A stretch of 4,984 bases of DNA, from IMG/VR virus record IMGVR_UViG_2711768073_000012; one strand, 5' to 3'. The notes below the pieces were generated by a model that did no database searches, was not told where the DNA came from, and worked only from the letters and a program-made list of their open reading frames with translations. Positions 2 to 4,984 of this stretch are shown piece by piece (the first letter of the stretch is position 1; each line of letters starts with the position of its first letter). The DNA is from a virus. Lineage: Duplodnaviria; Heunggongvirae; Uroviricota; Caudoviricetes. The position numbers were made by a program, and so were the translations under genes.

Positions 2-1498
2 TTTGCTCATCCGGAAGAAATCGACACCATTGTGTCCCACACCCGCGATATTGCCATTCAGGAAGACCGCCACGAGCTGGGCAATGATATTACTCCGCGC
101 TTTAAGGTGGAGTATGTCGACGGCTCAAAAGGCACGCCAACCAGCTACATCGCCACCTACATCGGAAAGAACCTGGACAGCCGCGCCGTGGATGGCATCG
201 ACCCGAAAACGGGCAAGCCACGCGTTGACCACGAAACCGGAAAATCAATGGCCGAGAGCGTGGAACGCGCCATCGGCTGGGCACGCCTTCACCGGGTCCG
301 CCAGTTCCAGTTCTTTGGCATCCCCTCCCGTCAGGTATGGCGTGAACTCCGCCGCCTTGCCAGCCAGATGGCACGCAACCCGGAAGGCCCACAACGGCTG
401 AAGGATGATGCAATGGATGCGGTACTCGCTGCCGCTGATGCCGGGTGTTTTGCCACCTACATTGAGAAACAGGGCGGCGTACTTGTTCCACGCAAAGACT
501 ACCTGATTCGCACCGCCTACGACCTCGCAGATGAGCTGAACGATTACGGCGAACAGAGCGTACAGATTTACGGGATCTGGTCACCACTCATCGGGGAATC
601 CTCCCGTGTGTGCACGCACTCGGATAACTGGAAGCTGGTAAGACGTAAACCGGAAGCGGAAGACAGCACCCGCGAAAATGGTTTTGACCTTCAGGGCGGC
701 CCTGCCGCCCCTTGGACTCGTGGCAATAACTGTCCCCGTGTACAGGAAACGGACAACAACGGGACAGAACAGCCGGAAGAAAGGCCAGCACCGTGGCCGC
801 AGCTTCCTGACGGCGTTGACGTGAATGAATGGATGCGCTCACTGAAACGGCACGAACGCCGGGCGCTGATGCGTTCGCTGCGTGACAAACAGGCAAAAAA
901 CAGCAGTGATGAAATGCAGAACTGGACACAGAGCCGCAAACAGCCACGGCCTTTGCCTGATAACCACGAGTTACTCGCTAAAGAATGGCGGGAGTCTGCT
1001 GAATCTCTCGGCCTGCATATCGGTGAACAGCAGATGCAGCACCTGTTACGGGGCGGCAGTCTGTACGTTGACGGCAGCATCATTGCACCGCAGGGATTTG
1101 AAATTGTACGCAAACCAGATACCCGCCCGGACAGCCGAATCACGCAACTCTGGCAGCGCCTGAGCCGTAATCACGGCGTAAGCAGCACGGAGATCCGCCA
1201 TAACCCGGTCGCCAGCTATCTGGAACAGCTGGGGGCATCAGACCCCGAAGCCGCCGCACACCTGGCATCCACACTTCAGCAGGACCAGAACACCATGAAA
1301 ACCCCCGTTACCGTGCTTTCTGACATGCTGCGCGCCATCCGTGACGCAGTGCACGCACAGAGAATCAGTGAAACCACTGAACGCGCCCACCGCAAAGCAG
1401 ACCTGCTGCGGGGTAGCCTGACCAGTGGAAACAAAAAACAGACAGAAACGGGACTCACAAATCCCGTAAATGAGCAAAAAACGTGCCGCGATATATGA
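2..1498 (+). CDS. A: Replication initiation endonuclease, phage P2 gene A family (rolling-circle initiator), C-terminal part; 5' end lies outside the window
   Basis: Frame is open from nt 2 (FAHPEEIDTIV...) with no stop until TGA at 1496-1498. Contains the paired-tyrosine motif SYIATYIGKN (Y-x-x-x-Y followed by K), typical of the catalytic motif of rolling-circle initiators of the phiX174/P2 A type. Position is consistent with P2 gene order (A, then variable cargo, then cos, then Q). The other overlapping ORFs here are off-frame artefacts of GC-rich sequence. Confidence 0.8.
   Translation, partial: FAHPEEIDTIVSHTRDIAIQEDRHELGNDITPRFKVEYVDGSKGTPTSYIATYIGKNLDSRAVDGIDPKTGKPRVDHETGKSMAESVERAIGWARLHRVRQFQFFGIPSRQVWRELRRLASQMARNPEGPQRLKDDAMDAVLAAADAGCFATYIEKQGGVLVPRKDYLIRTAYDLADELNDYGEQSVQIYGIWSPLIGESSRVCTHSDNWKLVRRKPEAEDSTRENGFDLQGGPAAPWTRGNNCPRVQETDNNGTEQPEERPAPWPQLPDGVDVNEWMRSLKRHERRALMRSLRDKQAKNSSDEMQNWTQSRKQPRPLPDNHELLAKEWRESAESLGLHIGEQQMQHLLRGGSLYVDGSIIAPQGFEIVRKPDTRPDSRITQLWQRLSRNHGVSSTEIRHNPVASYLEQLGASDPEAAAHLASTLQQDQNTMKTPVTVLSDMLRAIRDAVHAQRISETTERAHRKADLLRGSLTSGNKKQTETGLTNPVNEQKTCRDI
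1448..1467. promoter_or_regulatory. Inverted repeat ACGGGA-(8 nt)-TCCCGT inside the 3' end of gene A; candidate protein-binding or ori-associated hairpin
   Basis: Seen directly: acgggactcacaaatcccgt, 6-bp arms. A related element recurs about 73 bp downstream (1521-1540). Function is inferred. Confidence 0.3.
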
Positions 1499-1520
1499 AG
1501 CGCGCACAAAACAGGCAAAA

Positions 1521-1540
1521 GCGGGATTTAAAAATCCTGT
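1521..1540. promoter_or_regulatory. Inverted repeat GGATT-(4-5 nt)-AATCC in the A/parM-like intergenic region; candidate operator or centromere-like (parC-type) site overlapping a possible promoter
   Basis: Seen directly: gcgggatttaaaaatcctgt. It resembles the 1448-1467 element (aaa-cggga...aatcc-gtaa in both). It is followed by an AT-rich stretch (ttaattaat) and a Shine-Dalgarno aggaa 7 nt before the ATG at 1575. The promoter call (-35-like tttaaa, -10-like taatta) is weak. Confidence 0.3.
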
Positions 1541-1574
1541 AACCGATTAATTAATCAACACAAGGAAAAGCGAC

Positions 1575-2537
1575 ATGAAAATTTGTATCGACGACGGCTC
1601 CACCAACATCAAGCTGGCATGGACTGAGAACGGCGAACGCCGCAACGCCATCAGCCCGAACAGCTTCAAGTCGGAATGGTCTGCGCCGTTCGGTGGCACG
1701 CAGCCCGCGAACTACATGCTTGATGGCGTGCGCTATGGTTTTGATCCGGTCAGCGATCGCTTTGTCCAGACGACCGACACGCAATACCAGTACAGCGATG
1801 TGAATATAATTGCCATTCATCACGCGCTGGTCAAATCAGGCATCACACCACAGGAAGTGGATGTGGTTGTCACCCTGCCACTGAGCGAGTATTTCGATAC
1901 AAACGCACAGCCGGACATGGCCAACATCAACCGCAAAAAAGCGAACGTCATGCGCCCGGTGGAGTACCAGAACGGCGAAGCATTCACTATCCGTAACGTA
2001 CGGGTTATGCCTGAATCCATTCCGGCTGGCTTTAAGGCACTGGCTGACATGAGTCCGTTTGAATCCCTGCTGATTGTGGATTTGGGCGGAACCACTCTGG
2101 ATGTGGCAAAGGTTCAGGGGCAACTGGCAGGTATCAGCCAGGTGTTTTGCGATCCACACGTGGGCGTTTCTCTGATGGCCGATGCCGTACTGTCGGTGAT
2201 GGCCACTAACGGTATGCGCACCAGTCACCACATCGCCAATACCATTATCGAACATCGCCATGATGAAGCCTGGTTGCGCCAGCACATCCACAATGACGCG
2301 CATTACGCCAGCCTGATGGCGGTTATTCGTGAAAAGGAAGAAACACTGAAACAACGAGTGATCCGCGCGCTGGCGGGGTTTTCGGGTTACGGGCGGGTGA
2401 TGGTTGTCGGTGGCGGGGCGGAGATTGTGGCACCCGCTATCCGCGAAGCCTGCGGAGTTAATGCGACTTTCATCGCAAAAATGATGAAGCCTGGCTGCGC
2501 CAGCACATCCACAATGACGCGCATTACGCCAGCCTGA
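1575..2537 (+). CDS. ParM/StbA-like actin-fold partition ATPase; the native C-terminus is replaced by 19 frameshifted codons because of a tandem duplication
   Basis: N-terminus MKICIDDGSTNIKLAW closely resembles the plasmid R1 ParM/StbA N-terminus (IDDGSTNIKL phosphate-1 motif). Also present: phosphate-2 motif LIVDLGGTTLDV and adenosine motif VMVVGGGAEIV. SD aggaa sits 7 nt upstream of the ATG. The last 19 residues (KMMKPGCASTSTMTRITPA) are copy 2 of the duplication read out of frame. Confidence 0.85.
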   Translation: MKICIDDGSTNIKLAWTENGERRNAISPNSFKSEWSAPFGGTQPANYMLDGVRYGFDPVSDRFVQTTDTQYQYSDVNIIAIHHALVKSGITPQEVDVVVTLPLSEYFDTNAQPDMANINRKKANVMRPVEYQNGEAFTIRNVRVMPESIPAGFKALADMSPFESLLIVDLGGTTLDVAKVQGQLAGISQVFCDPHVGVSLMADAVLSVMATNGMRTSHHIANTIIEHRHDEAWLRQHIHNDAHYASLMAVIREKEETLKQRVIRALAGFSGYGRVMVVGGGAEIVAPAIREACGVNATFIAKMMKPGCASTSTMTRITPA

Positions 2538-2697
2538 TGGCGGTTATTCGTGAAAAGGAAGAAACACTGAAACAACGCGTGATCCGCGCGCTGGCGGGTT
2601 TTTCGGGTTACGGGCGGGTGATGGTTGTCGGTGGAGGGGCGGAGATTGTGGCACCCGCTATCCGCGAAGCCTGCGGAGTTAATGCGACTTTCATCGC
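2260..2697. repeat. Imperfect direct tandem duplication: two 217-bp copies (2260-2476 and 2481-2697) separated by AAAA; period 221 bp, not a multiple of 3
   Basis: Aligned by eye. The copies differ at 4 positions (2274 t/2495 c; 2357 a/2578 c; 2378 g/2599 t; 2414 c/2635 a). All four are third-codon-position synonymous changes in the parM reading frame. CATCGC occurs at the left boundary (2253-2258) and at the end of each copy (2471-2476 and 2692-2697). Confidence 0.9.
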
Positions 2698-2755
2698 GGA
2701 CGGGGTGCCACAGTTTGCTCTGGTTAATGGGCTGTACGCAATGGACAAGGAGTAA
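2537..2755 (+). CDS. Displaced native C-terminal reading frame of the parM-like gene (72-aa ORF); likely a remnant of the duplication rather than an independent gene
   Basis: Translation MAVIREKEETLKQRVIRALAGFSGYGRVMVVGGGAEIVAPAIREACGVNATFIA is identical to residues about 248-301 of the upstream ORF. It then continues DGVPQFALVNGLYAMDKE, which resembles the ParM C-terminal end (..DLVNGMY..). Removing one repeat unit restores a single ~319-aa ParM-like ORF running 1575 to 2755. Confidence 0.45.
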   Translation: MAVIREKEETLKQRVIRALAGFSGYGRVMVVGGGAEIVAPAIREACGVNATFIADGVPQFALVNGLYAMDKE

Positions 2756-2759
2756 ACCA

Positions 2760-3071
2760 ATGACGACTCCAACCAGACGGATAAGTTTCTATCTGAAGCC
2801 CACCGCCGTCAAGAACGAAGGAGAAGCATGCGCCTGGCTGGACAGCCTTACACCAGAAGCCCGCAAAAGCGGCCAACGCGTGGCTTTTCTGGCCGGGCTG
2901 GCACTTCTGAAAATGAATCCGGCAGAGGCTTATCGACTGGCTGCATGGGCTGGTGATGAAGCGTTATCAGTGACACAAACCAGGACAGAACGCCCCGCAT
3001 CACAGCCAGTATCAACCGCACAGATAACCAGTCAGATGGCCGGAAATATCCGGGCGTTATTTCCTGAATAA
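2760..3071 (+). CDS. ParR/StbB-like partition adaptor (ribbon-helix-helix-type small DNA-binding protein), 103 aa
   Basis: ATG at 2760 is preceded by SD aaggag (2747-2752, 7-nt spacer) and starts 5 nt after the parM-frame stop. Translation MTTPTRRISFYLKP...LDSLTPEARKSGQRVAFLAGLALLK...IRALFPE resembles R1 StbB/ParR (RRTIAFKLNP...LDSIPQGERS...AALTAGLALY...LRSLFP). The 148-aa ORF in the track (from 2625) begins inside repeat copy 2 in a third frame, so 2760 is the preferred start. Confidence 0.7.
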   Translation: MTTPTRRISFYLKPTAVKNEGEACAWLDSLTPEARKSGQRVAFLAGLALLKMNPAEAYRLAAWAGDEALSVTQTRTERPASQPVSTAQITSQMAGNIRALFPE

Positions 3072-3079
3072 CACAACAT

Positions 3080-3097
3080 CAGGGCGAGTTCGCCCTG
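3080..3097. promoter_or_regulatory. Palindrome CAGGGCGA-gt-TCGCCCTG directly downstream of the parR-like gene; hairpin or protein-binding site
   Basis: Seen directly. The same 8-bp arms recur at 3738-3763. There is no T-tract after it, so it is not a classical intrinsic terminator. Confidence 0.4.
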
Positions 3098-3134
3098 CTC
3101 TCCACCTCAGAACATAAACAAGGAGAACGACTTA

Positions 3135-3725
3135 ATGAGCGAAATCAACTATCAGGCATTACGTGAACGTTATTCACCTGTGCCAGTACCGAAATGCCCT
3201 ATTTGCGGCGAGGAAATGTCAATTCAGCGAATATCTGGAGCACAGGTTGTTTATGCCTGCTCCGGTTATGGTGATGATGGAGATTTCAAAATTGGCCAAA
3301 CTCTTGCCGACGAACATTATGAAAAATCACGCGTAACAGTGTTGGATGTCGGGGATCCTGAAGTATTGGCGCTACTTGATTGGCTGGAAACCAAAGACAA
3401 CCGAATCGCTGAACTGGAAAAAATCGCCACTGACTATGCACTTAAATTCCAGAAAGCACAGGACGCATTAAAGTATGCCGCTTTGCTGCATAGCAGGACG
3501 GCGCAACAAACAAATAATTTTGCAGTATCGCTTCCGGACATAAGCGAATATTTCATTAATGACGTATTTCAGCCCTTGCGATACGAGCGGGATGTTGAAA
3601 GAGCCATCATAAAGGCTGGCGGAAAAGCATTGTGGCAGGAGAAACACGAGGACAGAACGCATCAGTCCTGCGATGTAAATCGTGGATGGTTTAGCCCACT
3701 GACGACAGATAAAAATAACACCTGA
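3135..3725 (+). CDS. Ead/Ea22-like family protein (prophage early-region protein of unknown function) with an N-terminal CPIC motif and a central coiled-coil-like segment
   Basis: ATG at 3135 with SD aaggag 9 nt upstream. N-terminus MSEINYQALRE and the segment PEVLALLDWLETKDNRIAELE resemble, from memory, the conserved N-terminus and ..VLALLDELEAAEKRIAELE.. segment of Ead/Ea22-like prophage proteins. Cysteines at residues 21, 24 and 42. Codon composition is visibly more AT-rich than the flanking genes. Confidence 0.5.
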   Translation: MSEINYQALRERYSPVPVPKCPICGEEMSIQRISGAQVVYACSGYGDDGDFKIGQTLADEHYEKSRVTVLDVGDPEVLALLDWLETKDNRIAELEKIATDYALKFQKAQDALKYAALLHSRTAQQTNNFAVSLPDISEYFINDVFQPLRYERDVERAIIKAGGKALWQEKHEDRTHQSCDVNRGWFSPLTTDKNNT

Positions 3726-3737
3726 TCCCCCTCAAAC

Positions 3738-3763
3738 CAGGGCGATAATCGCGCATCGCCCTG
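3738..3763. promoter_or_regulatory. Second copy of the CAGGGCGA...TCGCCCTG inverted repeat (10-nt spacer), directly downstream of the Ea22-like gene
   Basis: Seen directly: cagggcgataatcgcgcatcgccctg. Together with 3080-3097 it brackets the Ea22-like ORF. Confidence 0.4.
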
Positions 3764-3764
3764 C

Positions 3765-3792
3765 TGCACAATAGTGCACAAGTTTGCACAAT
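3765..3792. repeat. Three phased direct repeats TGCACAA at 3765, 3775 and 3786 (10-11 bp spacing, about one helical turn); candidate protein-binding array
   Basis: Seen directly: tgcacaatagtgcacaagtttgcacaat, followed by a T7 tract. Confidence 0.4.
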
Positions 3793-3834
3793 TTTTTTGA
3801 ACGACTTTTTACCCTTCCGGCCCGCATGGCGGCT

Positions 3835-3853
3835 GGATCCGTCAAGGATCCGT
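3835..3853. repeat. Direct repeat GGATCCGT x2 with 11-bp period
   Basis: Seen directly: ggatccgtcaaggatccgt. Confidence 0.4.
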
Positions 3854-3861
3854 GCGTGCAC

Positions 3862-3886
3862 AAAAAAACGCGCTTTTTCTGCGCGC
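3862..3886 (-). terminator. Candidate rho-independent terminator for leftward (- strand) transcription
   Basis: The - strand reads CGCGC-agaaaaa-GCGCG followed by TTTTTTT: a 5-6 bp all-GC stem, 7-nt loop and U7 tract. It lies about 330 nt downstream of the portal stop, so its target transcript is uncertain. Confidence 0.4.
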
Positions 3887-3910
3887 AGGTGACGGGGGAA
3901 CAGCCCGCGT

Positions 3911-3937
3911 TTCAGGGGGTAAATAGCATCCCCTGAA
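3911..3937. promoter_or_regulatory. Inverted repeat TTCAGGGG-(11 nt)-CCCCTGAA
   Basis: Seen directly. One of several palindromes in the presumed cos-proximal region; another is tcacgc-tga-gcgtga at 3974-3988. Confidence 0.3.
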
Positions 3938-4163
3938 CGATGTCGCAGCGACACAACAGAATGGCTGTATTTCTCACGCTGAGCGTGAAAAAGACGTGAG
4001 GGCTTTTGATTTGATGGGTGGCAGATAAGGCCGTCAAAATCGCACTGAGGCGGCGAGAACATGCAGTCAACGCGGTGGGATTGCGTAAGAGTCTGACCGC
4101 CGATGATGACAATAAGCAGAAAAGCGTCGTGAAATTATCTGATTGATACAGGAGCTGGAGAGT

Positions 4164-4188
4164 CGGGGCATAAATTTTTTATGCCCCG
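4164..4188 (-). terminator. Near-perfect palindrome CGGGGCAT-aaatttttt-ATGCCCCG 27 nt downstream of the portal stop; candidate transcription terminator or binding site
   Basis: Seen directly: 8-bp GC-rich arms with an A/T-only centre. There is no external U-tract on either strand, so the terminator assignment is tentative. Confidence 0.35.
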
Positions 4189-4214
4189 GCGAAGCAGCAG
4201 ACAAGCGAAGCGCG

Positions 4215-4984
4215 TCAGGATGTGGGCTGGGTATCTAGCAGTGCGTAAGGGTTAAAGCGGATCACCTCTTCGCCAAGCCAGTCATTGATGTGCTTCATGG
4301 CCTCCATGACGGGCATCAGCTCGTTAATTGCGTAAACCCGCGCGGCCTTCTCCACATCACCAAACGCACTTTTTTCGCCCGGCATCGCCCCCATCAGTTG
4401 CGGCGGAACGCGGTGCGCAGCCAGCACATCATCACGGGATGCCGCCTTAACATTCATGAACTCATCCTTTGCGGTGATCTGCTGGAACGGCAAAATTTGC
4501 ACCCCCTCTTTGCCCCCGTTGGGCGCATGAATGAGCACATTTTTAAACGCACCACCACCACGTGCACCCTGTAACGTTTCTTTCAGGGAGTCCATGCTTT
4601 CGCGGTTTACCTGCGCTGCTCCGATGTAGATGATGCACCCGGCGTGGGATCCATTGTCGTAGTACAGTTTTCTGAACATGTCCGCCGAATGAGACAGGCT
4701 GGCCGAGAGTAATGCGCCGAGATATTCCGGCATGCCGTAGATTTCCTGGTTAATATCCGGATTCATCAGGTGGCACACTTTGCCAGGGCGAAACTGAAAC
4801 GCGTCCTTGCCGTCCTGTACATACCACCATGATTCAAGATCGCTTCCGCGTCGCATGTATTTCGCCAGTGCGTGCCGTAATTTAAGCGGTTCGCCGAGCA
4901 TATTGCTTCGAAGCTCAAGGAATGCGTTACCGAACACAAACCAGTCCAGCGCCAGCGCCGAGAAATCCTGCCGGGAAAGCAGCG
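4215..4984 (-). CDS. Q: Phage portal protein (P2 gene Q type), C-terminal ~255 codons; N-terminus lies beyond the window end
   Basis: The - strand frame is open from the window edge (..LLSRQDFSALALDWFVFGNAFLE..) to TGA at 4215-4217. It contains the HRVPPQLMGAMPG motif, which resembles the conserved (F/H)RVPPxLxG signature of phage portal proteins. Leftward orientation next to the cos-type region and opposite gene A matches P2 synteny. Confidence 0.75.
   Translation of the reverse strand, partial: LLSRQDFSALALDWFVFGNAFLELRSNMLGEPLKLRHALAKYMRRGSDLESWWYVQDGKDAFQFRPGKVCHLMNPDINQEIYGMPEYLGALLSASLSHSADMFRKLYYDNGSHAGCIIYIGAAQVNRESMDSLKETLQGARGGGAFKNVLIHAPNGGKEGVQILPFQQITAKDEFMNVKAASRDDVLAAHRVPPQLMGAMPGEKSAFGDVEKAARVYAINELMPVMEAMKHINDWLGEEVIRFNPYALLDTQPTS

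Follow-up and report, generated by a model that had tools for sequence, protein, structure and literature searches.

The window analysed here, a stretch of 4,984 nucleotides, belongs to a P88-like prophage (Xuanwuvirus, P2-type) that is related to phage P88 and spans 36.6 kb in its parent genome, and it is 99.3-99.8% identical to a prophage of E. coli O103 RM8385. Gene A, which codes for the replication endonuclease, takes up its left end (Pfam match to Phage_GPA at 32-1498). The prophage also carries a parMRC partition module, with parC-like repeats for ParR at 1432-1581, upstream of parM, and with parR, the gene for an StbB-like partition adaptor, at 2760-3071 on the plus strand (Pfam Plasmid_stab_B, 7.8e-23). 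In a RefSeq relative whose annotation covers the locus (L013), parR is annotated as a plasmid partitioning/stability protein. It is the final conserved backbone gene left of a cargo slot at 3072-3764, which adjoins the portal gene Q; this gene is partial in the window, lies on the minus strand (4215-4937; Pfam Phage_portal and RefSeq annotation) and forms the right conserved flank. The position of the slot between gene A and the portal gene was confirmed by Pfam, by the RefSeq annotation of L013 and by the P2 layout, and the slot is that of the gpA-gpQ cargo hotspot already published for P2 (PMC9122126; PMC13586616).

A variable cargo slot

A ParR-based locus search yielded three loci from genome contigs and 80 from the viral collection. 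The content of the hotspot was found to vary between near-identical phages: unrelated genes replace the Ea22-like gene of the window between flanks that are 88-98% identical, and the 79 loci compared contain at least 28 alternative cargos, all of low GC (0.34-0.48). The cargos of sister loci include DUF3800, DUF4760, AAA_15 together with OLD-TOPRIM, HTH-M78 together with PIN, and a MarR-like gene pair. None of the 79 loci had an empty slot, the shortest cassette being 537 nt long, and a synthetic empty-site junction query gave only two-piece matches among the 30 listed, with matches that contain cassettes of up to ~676 nt being merged into one place. Of 1483 complete E. coli genomes with a match to the locus, 221 showed the Ea22-type arrangement with 80% or more of the query covered.

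The locus is largely ordinary, in that the Ea22-like gene fills a known slot for swappable cargo, where 28 or more low-GC cargos, this gene among them, can take each other's place. An earlier note on this DNA had regarded an Ea22-like gene next to a partition module in a P2-type hotspot as unusual, a view that does not fit a known hotspot (PMC9122126) and an arrangement shared by that many genomes.

The Ea22-like gene and its product

The open reading frame at 3135-3725 on the plus strand codes for an Ead/Ea22-like protein of 196 aa. This assignment, proposed before, was borne out by a match of residues 2-140 to PF13935 (Ead_Ea22; 2.4e-31, 109.6 bits against a cut-off of 27); the protein also matched phrog_368, which is annotated as of unknown function, and PF13935 was present in all of its 531 homologues. 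The GC content of the gene is indeed lower than that of its flanks, at 0.453 compared to 0.576 in gene A, 0.551 in parM, 0.542 in parR and 0.541 in the portal gene, and its GC3 is 0.42 compared to ~0.63 in the neighbours; a GC content as low as this occurs in 16.6% of 591-nt windows across the parent prophage. The lower GC, and the replacement by many unrelated genes in relatives that are 92-98% identical elsewhere, agree with the earlier view of a separately acquired gene.

The protein consists of a conserved N-terminal tag, a putative zinc-ribbon domain with the pattern CxxC...C...H, a long coiled-coil helix and a small C-terminal domain, and the family alignment is modular, its C-terminal parts being non-homologous modules. 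Cys21, Cys24 and Cys42 (together with His61) are conserved in 17 of the 32 aligned homologues, a conservation pattern that suggests a putative metal site. AlphaFold2 with the 32-sequence alignment predicted a helix at 75-123 (pLDDT 58.7 and pTM 0.31 for the protein, a quality insufficient for a fold search). A sequence search of the PDB returned zero chains at E up to 1, and no PADLOC model matched the protein. The earlier statement that Ead/Ea22-like proteins have no established function needs qualifying: lambda Ea22 was reported to favour lysogeny (PMC7093339, PMC10834534), an activity reported for the Ea22 of lambda and Stx phages only (PMC7093339). The gene of the window is a reasonable candidate for superinfection exclusion or lysogeny control because it is placed among defence cargos.

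Upstream of the gene, a leader at 3098-3134 on the plus strand contains the ribosome-binding site AAGGAG (3120-3125). A leader block, AACATAAACAAGG(A/G)G, is common to cargos of the Ea22 type and of the ClpX-zinc-finger type, and a possible CUCUCC:GGAGA pairing appears in the predicted fold of the leader. A scan for the sigma-70 consensus found no sigma-70-like promoter at 3000-3135; a weak promoter, or one for another sigma factor, could have escaped it.

Two stem-loops at the borders of the slot

As the earlier note had described, the gene is surrounded by two palindromes with identical arms, each followed by CT. The left palindrome (3080-3097, plus strand) lies 9 nt past the parR stop and reads CAGGGCGA-gt-TCGCCCTG, then CT. 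Its realistic form is the stem-loop CAGGGCG-agtt-CGCCCTG, with a stem of 7 bp and a 4-nt loop (-13.0 kcal/mol, z = -4.05). This hairpin immediately follows the parR stop in loci that carry at least eight different cargos, among them the Ea22, ClpX-zinc-finger, DUF4760, L034-type and L055-type cargos, and it is absent with others. In IMG/VR, the left pattern occurred after parR, or else as chance matches in GC-rich contigs. The left hairpin behaves as part of the parMR module.

The loops seen in the left hairpin were AGTT, AACT, CATC, TATC and TATT, of which AACT (L084) is the reverse complement of AGTT. In the alignment of the left stem 91% of the cells were paired, compared to 31-40% in slid controls. 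Covariation was weak, with one compensatory change, from G-C to A-U in L055, which 173 of 500 shuffles matched; all four transitions seen in stems yield G-U pairs on the plus strand only (p ~0.06). Most relatives have CTGAT after the left stem, which lengthens it, and the trailing CT is a lineage variant. Within 0-3 nt of its 3' end the left stem gives way to one of at least seven different sequences, and in a recombinant (L079) whose CATC loop is coupled to the Ea22 leader the exchange point falls inside the 9-nt 3' arm. A terminator scan passed the left hairpin on the minus strand only, with the tail ATGTTGTGTT; in L042-type cassettes a minus-strand gene stops right at the hairpin, which is followed on that strand by AUGUUGUGUUAUU.

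The right stem (3738-3763, plus strand) begins 12 nt past the Ea22 stop codon, after the spacer TCCCCCTCAAAC (3726-3737, plus strand), of which only the ...AAAC end is kept across upstream genes. Read with 8-mer arms the right palindrome is CAGGGCGA-taatcgcgca-TCGCCCTG, then CT; its realistic form is the stem-loop CAGGGCGAT-aatcgcgc-ATCGCCCTG, with a stem of 9 bp and an 8-nt loop (-15.6 kcal/mol, z = -3.71). Across 16 distinct contexts the loop varied at five of eight positions and each arm at one of nine, in a comparison whose search pattern fixed the arms except for the outermost base; stems were intact in all Ea22-bearing cassettes found independently by position. The genes that precede the right hairpin are Ea22 genes with several different 3' ends and, in one case, an unrelated HTH gene. 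The hairpin occurs once in a phage without parMR, and has decayed to a relic in a cassette in which a minus-strand DUF3800 gene replaces the plus-strand Ea22 gene. In IMG/VR, its pattern was present in only 24 contigs and was followed by C and TGCAC in 23 of them.

The right hairpin adjoins the start of the conserved right backbone (3765-3798, plus strand), which opens with three TGCACAA repeats (3765, 3775 and 3785) in exact 10-bp phasing, followed by a run of seven T that lies 28 nt beyond the hairpin. This block contains a weak terminator-like site on the plus strand, GTGCAcaagttTGCAC with AATTTTTTT, at 3774-3789. Between the slot and the portal gene, a terminator-like hairpin with a T7 tail lies on the minus strand at 3868-3886 (GCGCGCAGAAAAAGCGCGT with TTTTTTGTGC).

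The hairpins assort independently

The earlier note took the two palindromes for a pair that delimits one unit, with the boundaries of the gene coinciding with them. When related prophages were compared, this match of insertion boundaries and palindromes was found on the right and, on the left, not consistently. In all loci compared the variable segment stops at 3764/3765, immediately behind the right palindrome, and from there the window is again homologous to every relative; in L055/L058 an unrelated two-gene cargo lies between versions of both hairpins. On the left, at least seven cargo classes have no left hairpin, and in these the backbone breaks off at the parR stop (3071-3074). The idea of a delimiting pair fell, with the left hairpin kept alongside at least eight other cargos and the right hairpin occurring without the left one (L054, L076, L098, L101 and L104). 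The sharp joints need no hairpins, since the TGCAC boundary is equally sharp in hairpin-free cassettes (L004, L005, L010, L012, L038 and L059). The left and right palindromes are independent border stem-loops, not matched ends of one element, and they stay in place at the borders when the cargo is exchanged.

The identity of the arms was evaluated against chance. The 10-mer TCGCCCTGCT occurs at 3090-3099 and at 3756-3765. Exact copies of CAGGGCGA number five, four of them in the two palindromes, and with up to one mismatch 12 occurrences were counted compared to 5.1 expected, a number that one of 200 shuffles reached. The 36.6-kb prophage contains 29 perfect hairpins (arm of at least 7, loop of 2-12), and only one pair of them, left and right, has arms in common. 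A local alignment of left against right recovered the 10-mer alone, which 34 of 2000 shuffles equalled (p = 0.017). Since the left-hand CT varies between lineages, the older arm identity amounts to 7-8 nt, for which the rough expectation between two segments of such size is ~0.08. The arm repeat is real, and only marginally beyond chance (p ~0.02-0.08); it is probably a coincidence or the result of old shared ancestry, without functional coupling.

Further candidates were discarded. Duplication of a larger unit, made up of hairpin and flank, was rejected on account of the dissimilar flanks, for which 469 of 2000 shuffles scored equally, and a seeming likeness of the leader to the right-hand spacer failed the same shuffle test. 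Concerted evolution of both hairpins was rejected too, L006, L014 and L055 having changed on the left only. The palindrome has no further copies in the 36.6-kb prophage beyond the two, and Rfam gave no known RNA family in 1400-4300 at E up to 1. The hairpins are not a dispersed element; apart from the chance matches in GC-rich contigs, their IMG/VR patterns are confined to this locus.

A probable role in the transcript and its rivals

The anatomy of the hairpins, their comparative distribution and their pattern of conservation are established by the results above. The stems are GC-rich and kept while the loops vary, and the substitutions seen preserve pairing in the plus-strand RNA. I infer a function at the level of RNA and a route of exchange: on balance, the hairpins are probably independent insulator or 3'-end stem-loops of the plus-strand RNA at module borders, and the cargo would be swapped through the conserved flanks. 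Insulation, suggested in the earlier note in the form of terminators or attenuators, is the most plausible function of the hairpins, and it has to be separated from termination proper: the plus-strand tails are CUCUCCACC and CUGCACAAU, a U-tract is absent from both, and neither hairpin is therefore a canonical intrinsic terminator. Other plus-strand cargos end at the same position in canonical terminators of their own.

In such a scheme the left hairpin would form part of the parMR operon at its 3' end. With no promoter of its own detected, the Ea22-like gene probably depends on a promoter further upstream, whose transcript would run through the left hairpin. Lacking the plus-strand U-tract, this hairpin would not terminate fully and may instead attenuate the transcript, serve in its processing or stabilise the message upstream of it. 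On the minus strand, where a U-rich tract follows it, the same hairpin could terminate minus-strand cargo genes. The right hairpin would close the cargo transcript just before the weak backbone T7 terminator and shield the conserved block. Cargo would be swapped by recombination in the conserved flanks, and breakpoints would gather at the hairpin edges because the hairpins are the innermost conserved pieces of these flanks.

This reading leaves the arm identity (p ~0.02-0.08) unexplained, and the sharp joints at the left stem as well as the exchange point in L079 are equally expected if the hairpins are active recombination joints, acting as linkers or microhomologies or through replication stalling and template switching, with the identical arms as footprint or facilitator. 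I consider such active joints unlikely, if still the foremost of the rivals. The abrupt junctions of the left stem with seven or more unrelated sequences (0-3 nt from its 3' end), the L079 crossover inside the 9-nt arm, the inverted loop AACT of L084 and the unrelated cargo between both hairpins in L055/L058 all fit them, and the words GGGCG and CGCCC recur in several other border hairpins of the hotspot, such as the P88-type terminator ACGCCCT..AGGGCGT and CCAGGGCGG in L067. The exchange process at such hotspots is, moreover, still to be elucidated (PMC13586616). The comparison of loci speaks against this explanation: the TGCAC boundary is as sharp in the six cassettes without any hairpin, at least seven cargo classes break at the parR stop instead, no empty single-hairpin site exists in the 79 loci, and the right hairpin decays once the plus-strand gene is gone. 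The dissimilar hairpin flanks (469 of 2000 shuffles equal) and the lack of concerted change, with L006, L014 and L055 altered on the left only, weigh against it as well. Stems of 7-9 bp are also short for cruciform extrusion or RecA-dependent exchange. The wider claim, that these border stem-loops and similar ones between cargo modules are physical joints of cassette exchange in P2-type phages, is somewhat more doubtful again; if true, it would offer a testable mechanism for the rapid swapping of defence genes.

That the palindromes are operators in duplex DNA, where one dimeric regulator such as ParR or another phage regulator would bracket and co-regulate the cargo gene, has little probability indeed. 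The identical 8-bp half-sites stand in dyad symmetry at both positions and the stem sequence is highly conserved beyond its pairing, both in favour of this reading. The shared regulator site that had been proposed is nevertheless unlikely because only two copies exist in the prophage and because the 8-mer arms are spaced by 2 nt on the left and 10 nt on the right, which is hard to fit to one dimer. Each hairpin is commonly found without the other, the G-U-compatible or compensatory variants in L006, L014 and L055 alter the supposed recognition sequence, and the parC-like repeats for ParR upstream of parM are unrelated to the palindromes in sequence. At the other extreme, the arm identity could be pure coincidence between two GC-rich stems of terminator type, and the hairpins could merely persist neutrally. 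GC-rich stems use a small vocabulary of words, and coincidence sits well with an identity that spans just 7-8 nt in most lineages (~0.08 expected for segments of such length), or with a 10-mer at p = 0.017. Neutral persistence is contradicted by stems that are kept while loops and flanks diverge, even in phages of the Salmonella, E. albertii and E. marmotae types, and by the decay of the right hairpin to a relic where its associated gene was lost. Taken as a whole, this explanation is improbable, less so than the operators and more so than the recombination joints. Stems kept across lineages, together with the decaying relics, point to selection on each hairpin, though not to a link between the two.

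Relation to known systems

The P2 hotspot, the tin/old locus next to cos (Rousset et al. 2022, PMC9122126; NAR 2026, PMC13586616), has the same gpA-gpQ position as the slot described here. Its content is likewise hypervariable between near-identical backbones, its cargo is likewise of low GC, and defence-type cargos (OLD-like TOPRIM/AAA, DUF4760) are found in sister loci of the window. In contrast to P2, the parMRC module lies between A and the slot, and the left border is therefore parR and not A. The Ea22-like cargo is also on the plus strand and probably read from upstream, whereas P2 old/tin lie on the opposite strand with a promoter of their own. Terminators, hairpins and palindromes are not mentioned in PMC9122126 or PMC13586616. 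The P2 cos sequence GGCGAGGCGGGGAAAGCAC was matched no more than weakly in the window, at two places: 3889-3907 (13/19) and ~4045-4063 (12/19).

As it stands, the locus holds one more cargo gene of a phage hotspot that is already well described, and the stem-loops at its borders look ordinary. What is added is modest, namely the anatomy of the cargo slot in P88-like phages at the level of nucleotides: a fixed hairpin next to parR that may act on either strand marks the left border, and a sharply fixed block opening with three 10-bp-phased TGCACAA repeats marks the right one, where the second hairpin persists behind different cargos.

The lambda Ea22/P22 Ead family (PF13935) resembles the protein of the window over residues 2-140 and in its modular make-up, in which a coiled coil links a short N-terminal region to a C-terminal domain. 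In lambda, Ea22 belongs to the early proteins of the exo-xis region, and an NMR structure of its C-terminal domain has been reported (PMC7093339, PMC10834534). The settings differ, with a P2-type hotspot here and a lambdoid exo-xis region there; the C-terminal domain of the window protein has no sequence match to solved structures (E up to 1), and its N-terminal domain differs in the conserved CxxC...C...H motif.

Morons, in the sense of Hendrix and colleagues, are extra genes with their own promoter and terminator, located between genes that are adjacent in related phages. The Ea22-like gene resembles them in its foreign composition, in being present or replaced between conserved neighbours and in the stem-loop that follows it. 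Unlike a moron, it has no detected promoter of its own, its 3' stem-loop lacks a U-tract, the slot was never empty in 79 loci, and the hairpins belong to the borders and do not travel with the gene.

Intercistronic and 3' stem-loops, such as the REP hairpins in malEFG, stabilise the upstream mRNA or attenuate read-through in operons. The hairpins of the slot share with them a GC-rich stem without U-tract between co-oriented genes, with the stem kept and the loop variable; they differ in being confined to one locus rather than forming a dispersed family, and they are known here from sequence. The attC sites of integrons are also palindromes at cassette borders, with many alternative cassettes per slot. 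In contrast to attC, the present locus has perfect stems that lack extrahelical bases and R'/R'' core sites, and its two hairpins assort independently. The sole integrase of the prophage, in which no integron integrase was found, is the phage one at the prophage end, ~9 kb away.

A variable cargo slot between genes A and Q

A prophage of E. coli O103 RM8385 (L097; L-numbers denote related hotspot loci in other phages and prophages) is 99.3-99.8% identical to the window, which belongs to the P88-like phage group (Xuanwuvirus, Peduoviridae). The locus, in which replication endonuclease gene A is followed by parC-like repeats, parM, parR, a variable segment, a conserved non-coding block and, on the other strand, the portal gene Q, is the gpA-gpQ hotspot known from P2-like phages (PMC9122126). 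In P2, the same slot is occupied by tin and old.

The interval from the parR stop to the conserved block was extracted from 79 loci, other loci holding longer cargos, and comprised 28 cassette types of 537-1935 nt, all low in GC (0.34-0.48). Among the cargos are DUF3800 and DUF4760 genes, an AAA_15 and OLD-type TOPRIM pair, an HTH-M78 and PIN pair, a MarR-like two-gene set, small-protein arrays with a ClpX-type zinc-finger protein at the head, and several Ea22-like variants. An Ea22-like gene at this place, called unusual in the earlier note, turned out to be common: the arrangement covers at least 80% of the query in 221 of the 1483 complete E. coli genomes matching the locus. With all cassettes low in GC, this composition and a 'foreign' look are generic for the slot. 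Two low-GC islands elsewhere in L097, a YecA-family gene between ogr and gene D (6551-8081) and a serine O-acetyltransferase gene among tail genes (14871-15961), are probably further cargo slots of the same prophage.

The Ea22-like gene

The ORF at 3135-3725 (196 aa) matches Pfam Ead_Ea22 (2.4e-31) and already carries an Ead/Ea22-like annotation in RefSeq. As had been noticed by eye, its GC content is lower (0.453, GC3 0.42) than that of gene A (0.576), parM (0.551), parR (0.542) and the portal gene (0.541). This dip is real and not extreme, since 16.6% of 591-nt windows of the parent prophage, which overlap other accessory regions, are equally low.

The family is strongly modular: behind a retained N-terminal tag (MSEINYQALRE), the N-domain and the C-terminal domain each exist in alternative forms, with a coiled coil between them. 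Of 32 aligned homologues, 17 conserve residues C21, C24, C42 and H61 of this copy, whose N-domain could plausibly be a zinc ribbon. The AlphaFold2 model is of low confidence (pLDDT 58.7) and shows a long helix at 75-123. The protein gave no match in a PDB sequence search and no hit in a PADLOC scan, and its PHROG matches are groups of unknown function. For lambda Ea22, a role in favouring lysogeny via an unknown partner has been reported (PMC7093339; PMC10834534).

Compared with L006, L014 and L015, the N-terminal domain itself (3166-3383) is swapped: alternatives to the CxxC zinc-ribbon domain occur between the retained first ~11 codons and the coiled-coil/C-terminal part, which makes the gene a mosaic with internal exchange points. 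In some homologues (P0013 and P0021) the stop codon is lost, and the reading frame continues across the spacer, right hairpin and TGCAC repeats, which appends 25 residues (CSPSNQGDNRASPFCTIVHKFAQFF).

Borders of the cassette

On the right, homology restarts at 3764/3765 in every comparison, one base past the right palindrome and at the first of three TGCACAA repeats with exact 10-bp phasing. This boundary is as sharp where other terminators stand there (P88-type AAACGCCCT-cttcc-AGGGCGTTTATTT; GCGCC-gataa-GGCGCTTTTTTT) and in cassettes without any hairpin, and is therefore set by the backbone, not by the palindrome. The backbone begins with the three repeats and a T7 run (3765-3798), and since every one of ~80 cargo variants ends exactly there, it is presumably essential, perhaps as a packaging/terminase-binding or other cis-acting site. 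A deletion in L055/L058 runs from the second repeat to about 3860. The 19-nt cohesive end of P2 matches the window weakly, at 3889-3907 (13/19, adjoining a terminator-like minus-strand hairpin at 3868-3886) and about 4045-4063 (12/19), and cos was not confidently placed. Just past the portal-gene stop codon lies a perfect palindrome with 11-bp arms (4164-4188, CGGGGCATAAA-ttt-TTTATGCCCCG), which by position probably corresponds to the tQ terminator of P2.

On the left, at least seven cargo classes have the parR stop (3071-3074) as the end of the backbone. In many others the left hairpin is kept and divergence begins 0-3 nt from the 3' end of its stem, where at least seven different sequences are joined (ACTTTAA, CACAAAAC, TCCCATTC, CCAACGCAC, CTCCACC, ATCCCCTC and CCACCAATCCC). 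It follows parR in front of Ea22, ClpX-zinc-finger, DUF4760, L034-type and L055-type cargos, with CATC, AGTT, TATT, TATC or AACT as its loop. The right hairpin is preceded by several different Ea22 3' coding ends and by an unrelated HTH gene, and stands without the left one in L054, L076, L098, L101 and L104, an E. albertii phage without parMR. Its pattern was found in only 24 IMG/VR contigs, in 23 of them exactly at the cargo/TGCAC junction. The two hairpins thus assort independently. The palindromes bracket a mobile unit only loosely, and that picture holds for a subset of loci, as in L055/L058, where an unrelated cargo is enclosed by versions of both.

In L079 (3813-3870), a ClpX-type loop (CATC) and parR end are joined to an Ea22-type leader, which places the exchange point inside the 9-nt 3' arm, and in L084 (3813-3842) the left loop is reverse-complemented (AACT, not AGTT). 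Another cargo module, encoding a 174-aa protein with no Pfam match (L098 1437-1498, L101 1930-1995, L104 1919-1980; left ends of L054, L076, L083 and L087), has a conserved leader with a GC-rich stem, CGGGG(T/C)G-cactgt-CGCCCCG, showing U-G/C-G alternation. Judged from these sequences, stem-loops seem to punctuate module junctions across the hotspot.

Sequence and conservation of the hairpins

Palindromes with the same arms do flank the ORF, as the earlier note had it: CAGGGCGA-gt-TCGCCCTG at 3080-3097 and CAGGGCGA-taatcgcgca-TCGCCCTG at 3738-3763, each followed by CT. In the RNA fold, the stem of the left element has 7 bp and closes a 4-nt loop (-13.0 kcal/mol, z = -4.05), and that of the right one has 9 bp and closes an 8-nt loop (-15.6 kcal/mol, z = -3.71). 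The arm 8-mer is over-represented within the window, and among 29 perfect hairpins in the 36.6-kb prophage these two are the sole pair with common arms. Nevertheless, the arm identity, although real, is only marginally beyond chance, because local alignment of the two elements recovers just TCGCCCTGCT, equalled by 34 of 2000 shuffles, and the left 'CT' is a lineage variant (CTGAT in most relatives, giving a 9-11 bp stem). Pure coincidence of the arms would be compatible with reading the hairpins as border stem-loops. The 3' end of the parR coding sequence (3036-3056, AATATCCGGGCGTTATT; AACATCAGGGCGTTATT in L101) resembles the left-hairpin 5' arm and loop (3075-3093, AACATCAGGGCG-AGTT or -TATT), which may reflect a short local duplication or chance.

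The right hairpin was compared in 16 distinct contexts: variable positions numbered 5 of 8 in the loop, 25 of 30 upstream and one of nine in each arm, a count that is partly circular as the inner stem was fixed by the search pattern; right stems were intact in all Ea22-bearing cassettes located independently by position. For the left hairpin, 91% of cells are paired versus 31-40% in slid controls, with one compensatory change (G-C to A-U, L055) and six one-sided changes, each to G-U or U-G; covariation is weak, being equalled by 173 of 500 shuffles. All four stem transitions observed, three left (L006/L014/L092) and one right (L032/L064), preserve pairing in plus-strand RNA only, which is suggestive of selection on that strand (p ~0.06). 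Where a minus-strand DUF3800 gene replaces Ea22, the right hairpin is a decayed relic (AAAGGCGA-aaatcatgta-TCGCTCT).

Proposed role and alternatives

No sigma-70-like promoter was detected upstream of the Ea22-like gene, and its leader/ribosome-binding block, AACATAAACAAGG(A/G)G, is common to ClpX-zinc-finger cargos; the gene is therefore probably read from upstream, through the left hairpin. Since neither hairpin is followed by a plus-strand U-tract, both would act as attenuator, processing or 3'-stabiliser stem-loops; of the two insulating roles suggested earlier, this would favour the attenuator over the full terminator. The left hairpin would also double as a bidirectional border, because on the minus strand it is followed by AUGUUGUGUUAUU and passes a terminator scan, and the coding region of the minus-strand DUF4760 gene in L042-type cassettes ends right at it. 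The right hairpin lies 12 nt past the stop codon, ahead of a weak backbone terminator-like site (3774-3798, 5-bp stem and T7). Hairpins and backbone site would insulate parMR, cargo and conserved block from one another's transcription. The predicted leader fold (3098-3126) pairs CUCUCC, which directly adjoins the left hairpin, with GGAGA in the ribosome-binding site of the Ea22 gene; translation may thereby be weakly occluded.

Cargo would be exchanged by recombination in the conserved flanks, which would put breakpoints at the edges of the innermost conserved pieces. That the hairpins themselves are active recombination joints is a minority reading, and would be the more interesting one if true. 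Speaking for it are the sharp left joint, the L079 crossover within an arm, the inverted loop of L084 and the enclosure of the L055 cargo by versions of both hairpins. Against it, hairpin-free cassettes have an equally sharp TGCAC boundary, in many cargo classes the break falls at the parR stop, the two hairpins do not change in concert, their flanks are dissimilar, their stems are short, and no empty site was seen among the 79 loci (shortest cassette 537 nt). It is unlikely that the palindromes form a duplex operator shared by one regulator, another proposal of the earlier note, as the 8-mer arms are separated by 2 nt in the left palindrome and by 10 nt in the right one, only two copies exist in the prophage, and these assort independently.

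The hotspot itself is already published, and the hairpins look like ordinary module-border stem-loops. Two papers on the hotspot (PMC9122126; PMC13586616) do not mention terminators, hairpins or palindromes, and the latter describes the process of recombination as not yet elucidated; the nucleotide-level border anatomy of the slot is thus a small addition.

The partition module

Within parM, I found a tandem duplication of 217 bp with a 4-nt filler (2260-2476 and 2481-2697), which replaces the last ~17 ParM residues and leaves the second C-terminal copy as a separate ORF (2537-2755). The near-identical RM8385 prophage lacks it and has an intact parM of 960 bp, and no uninterrupted match to the junction turned up among the complete E. 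coli genomes listed. Either the duplication is genuine and specific to this strain, disrupting the partition ATPase, or it arose in assembly. The region separating gene A from parM holds direct repeats of ~26-38 nt (1432-1469, 1505-1542 and 1556-1581; CAAAACAG.CA.AA.CGGGA...), each with a short internal inverted repeat (ACGGGA...TCCCGT); these probably represent the module's parC centromere and promoter.
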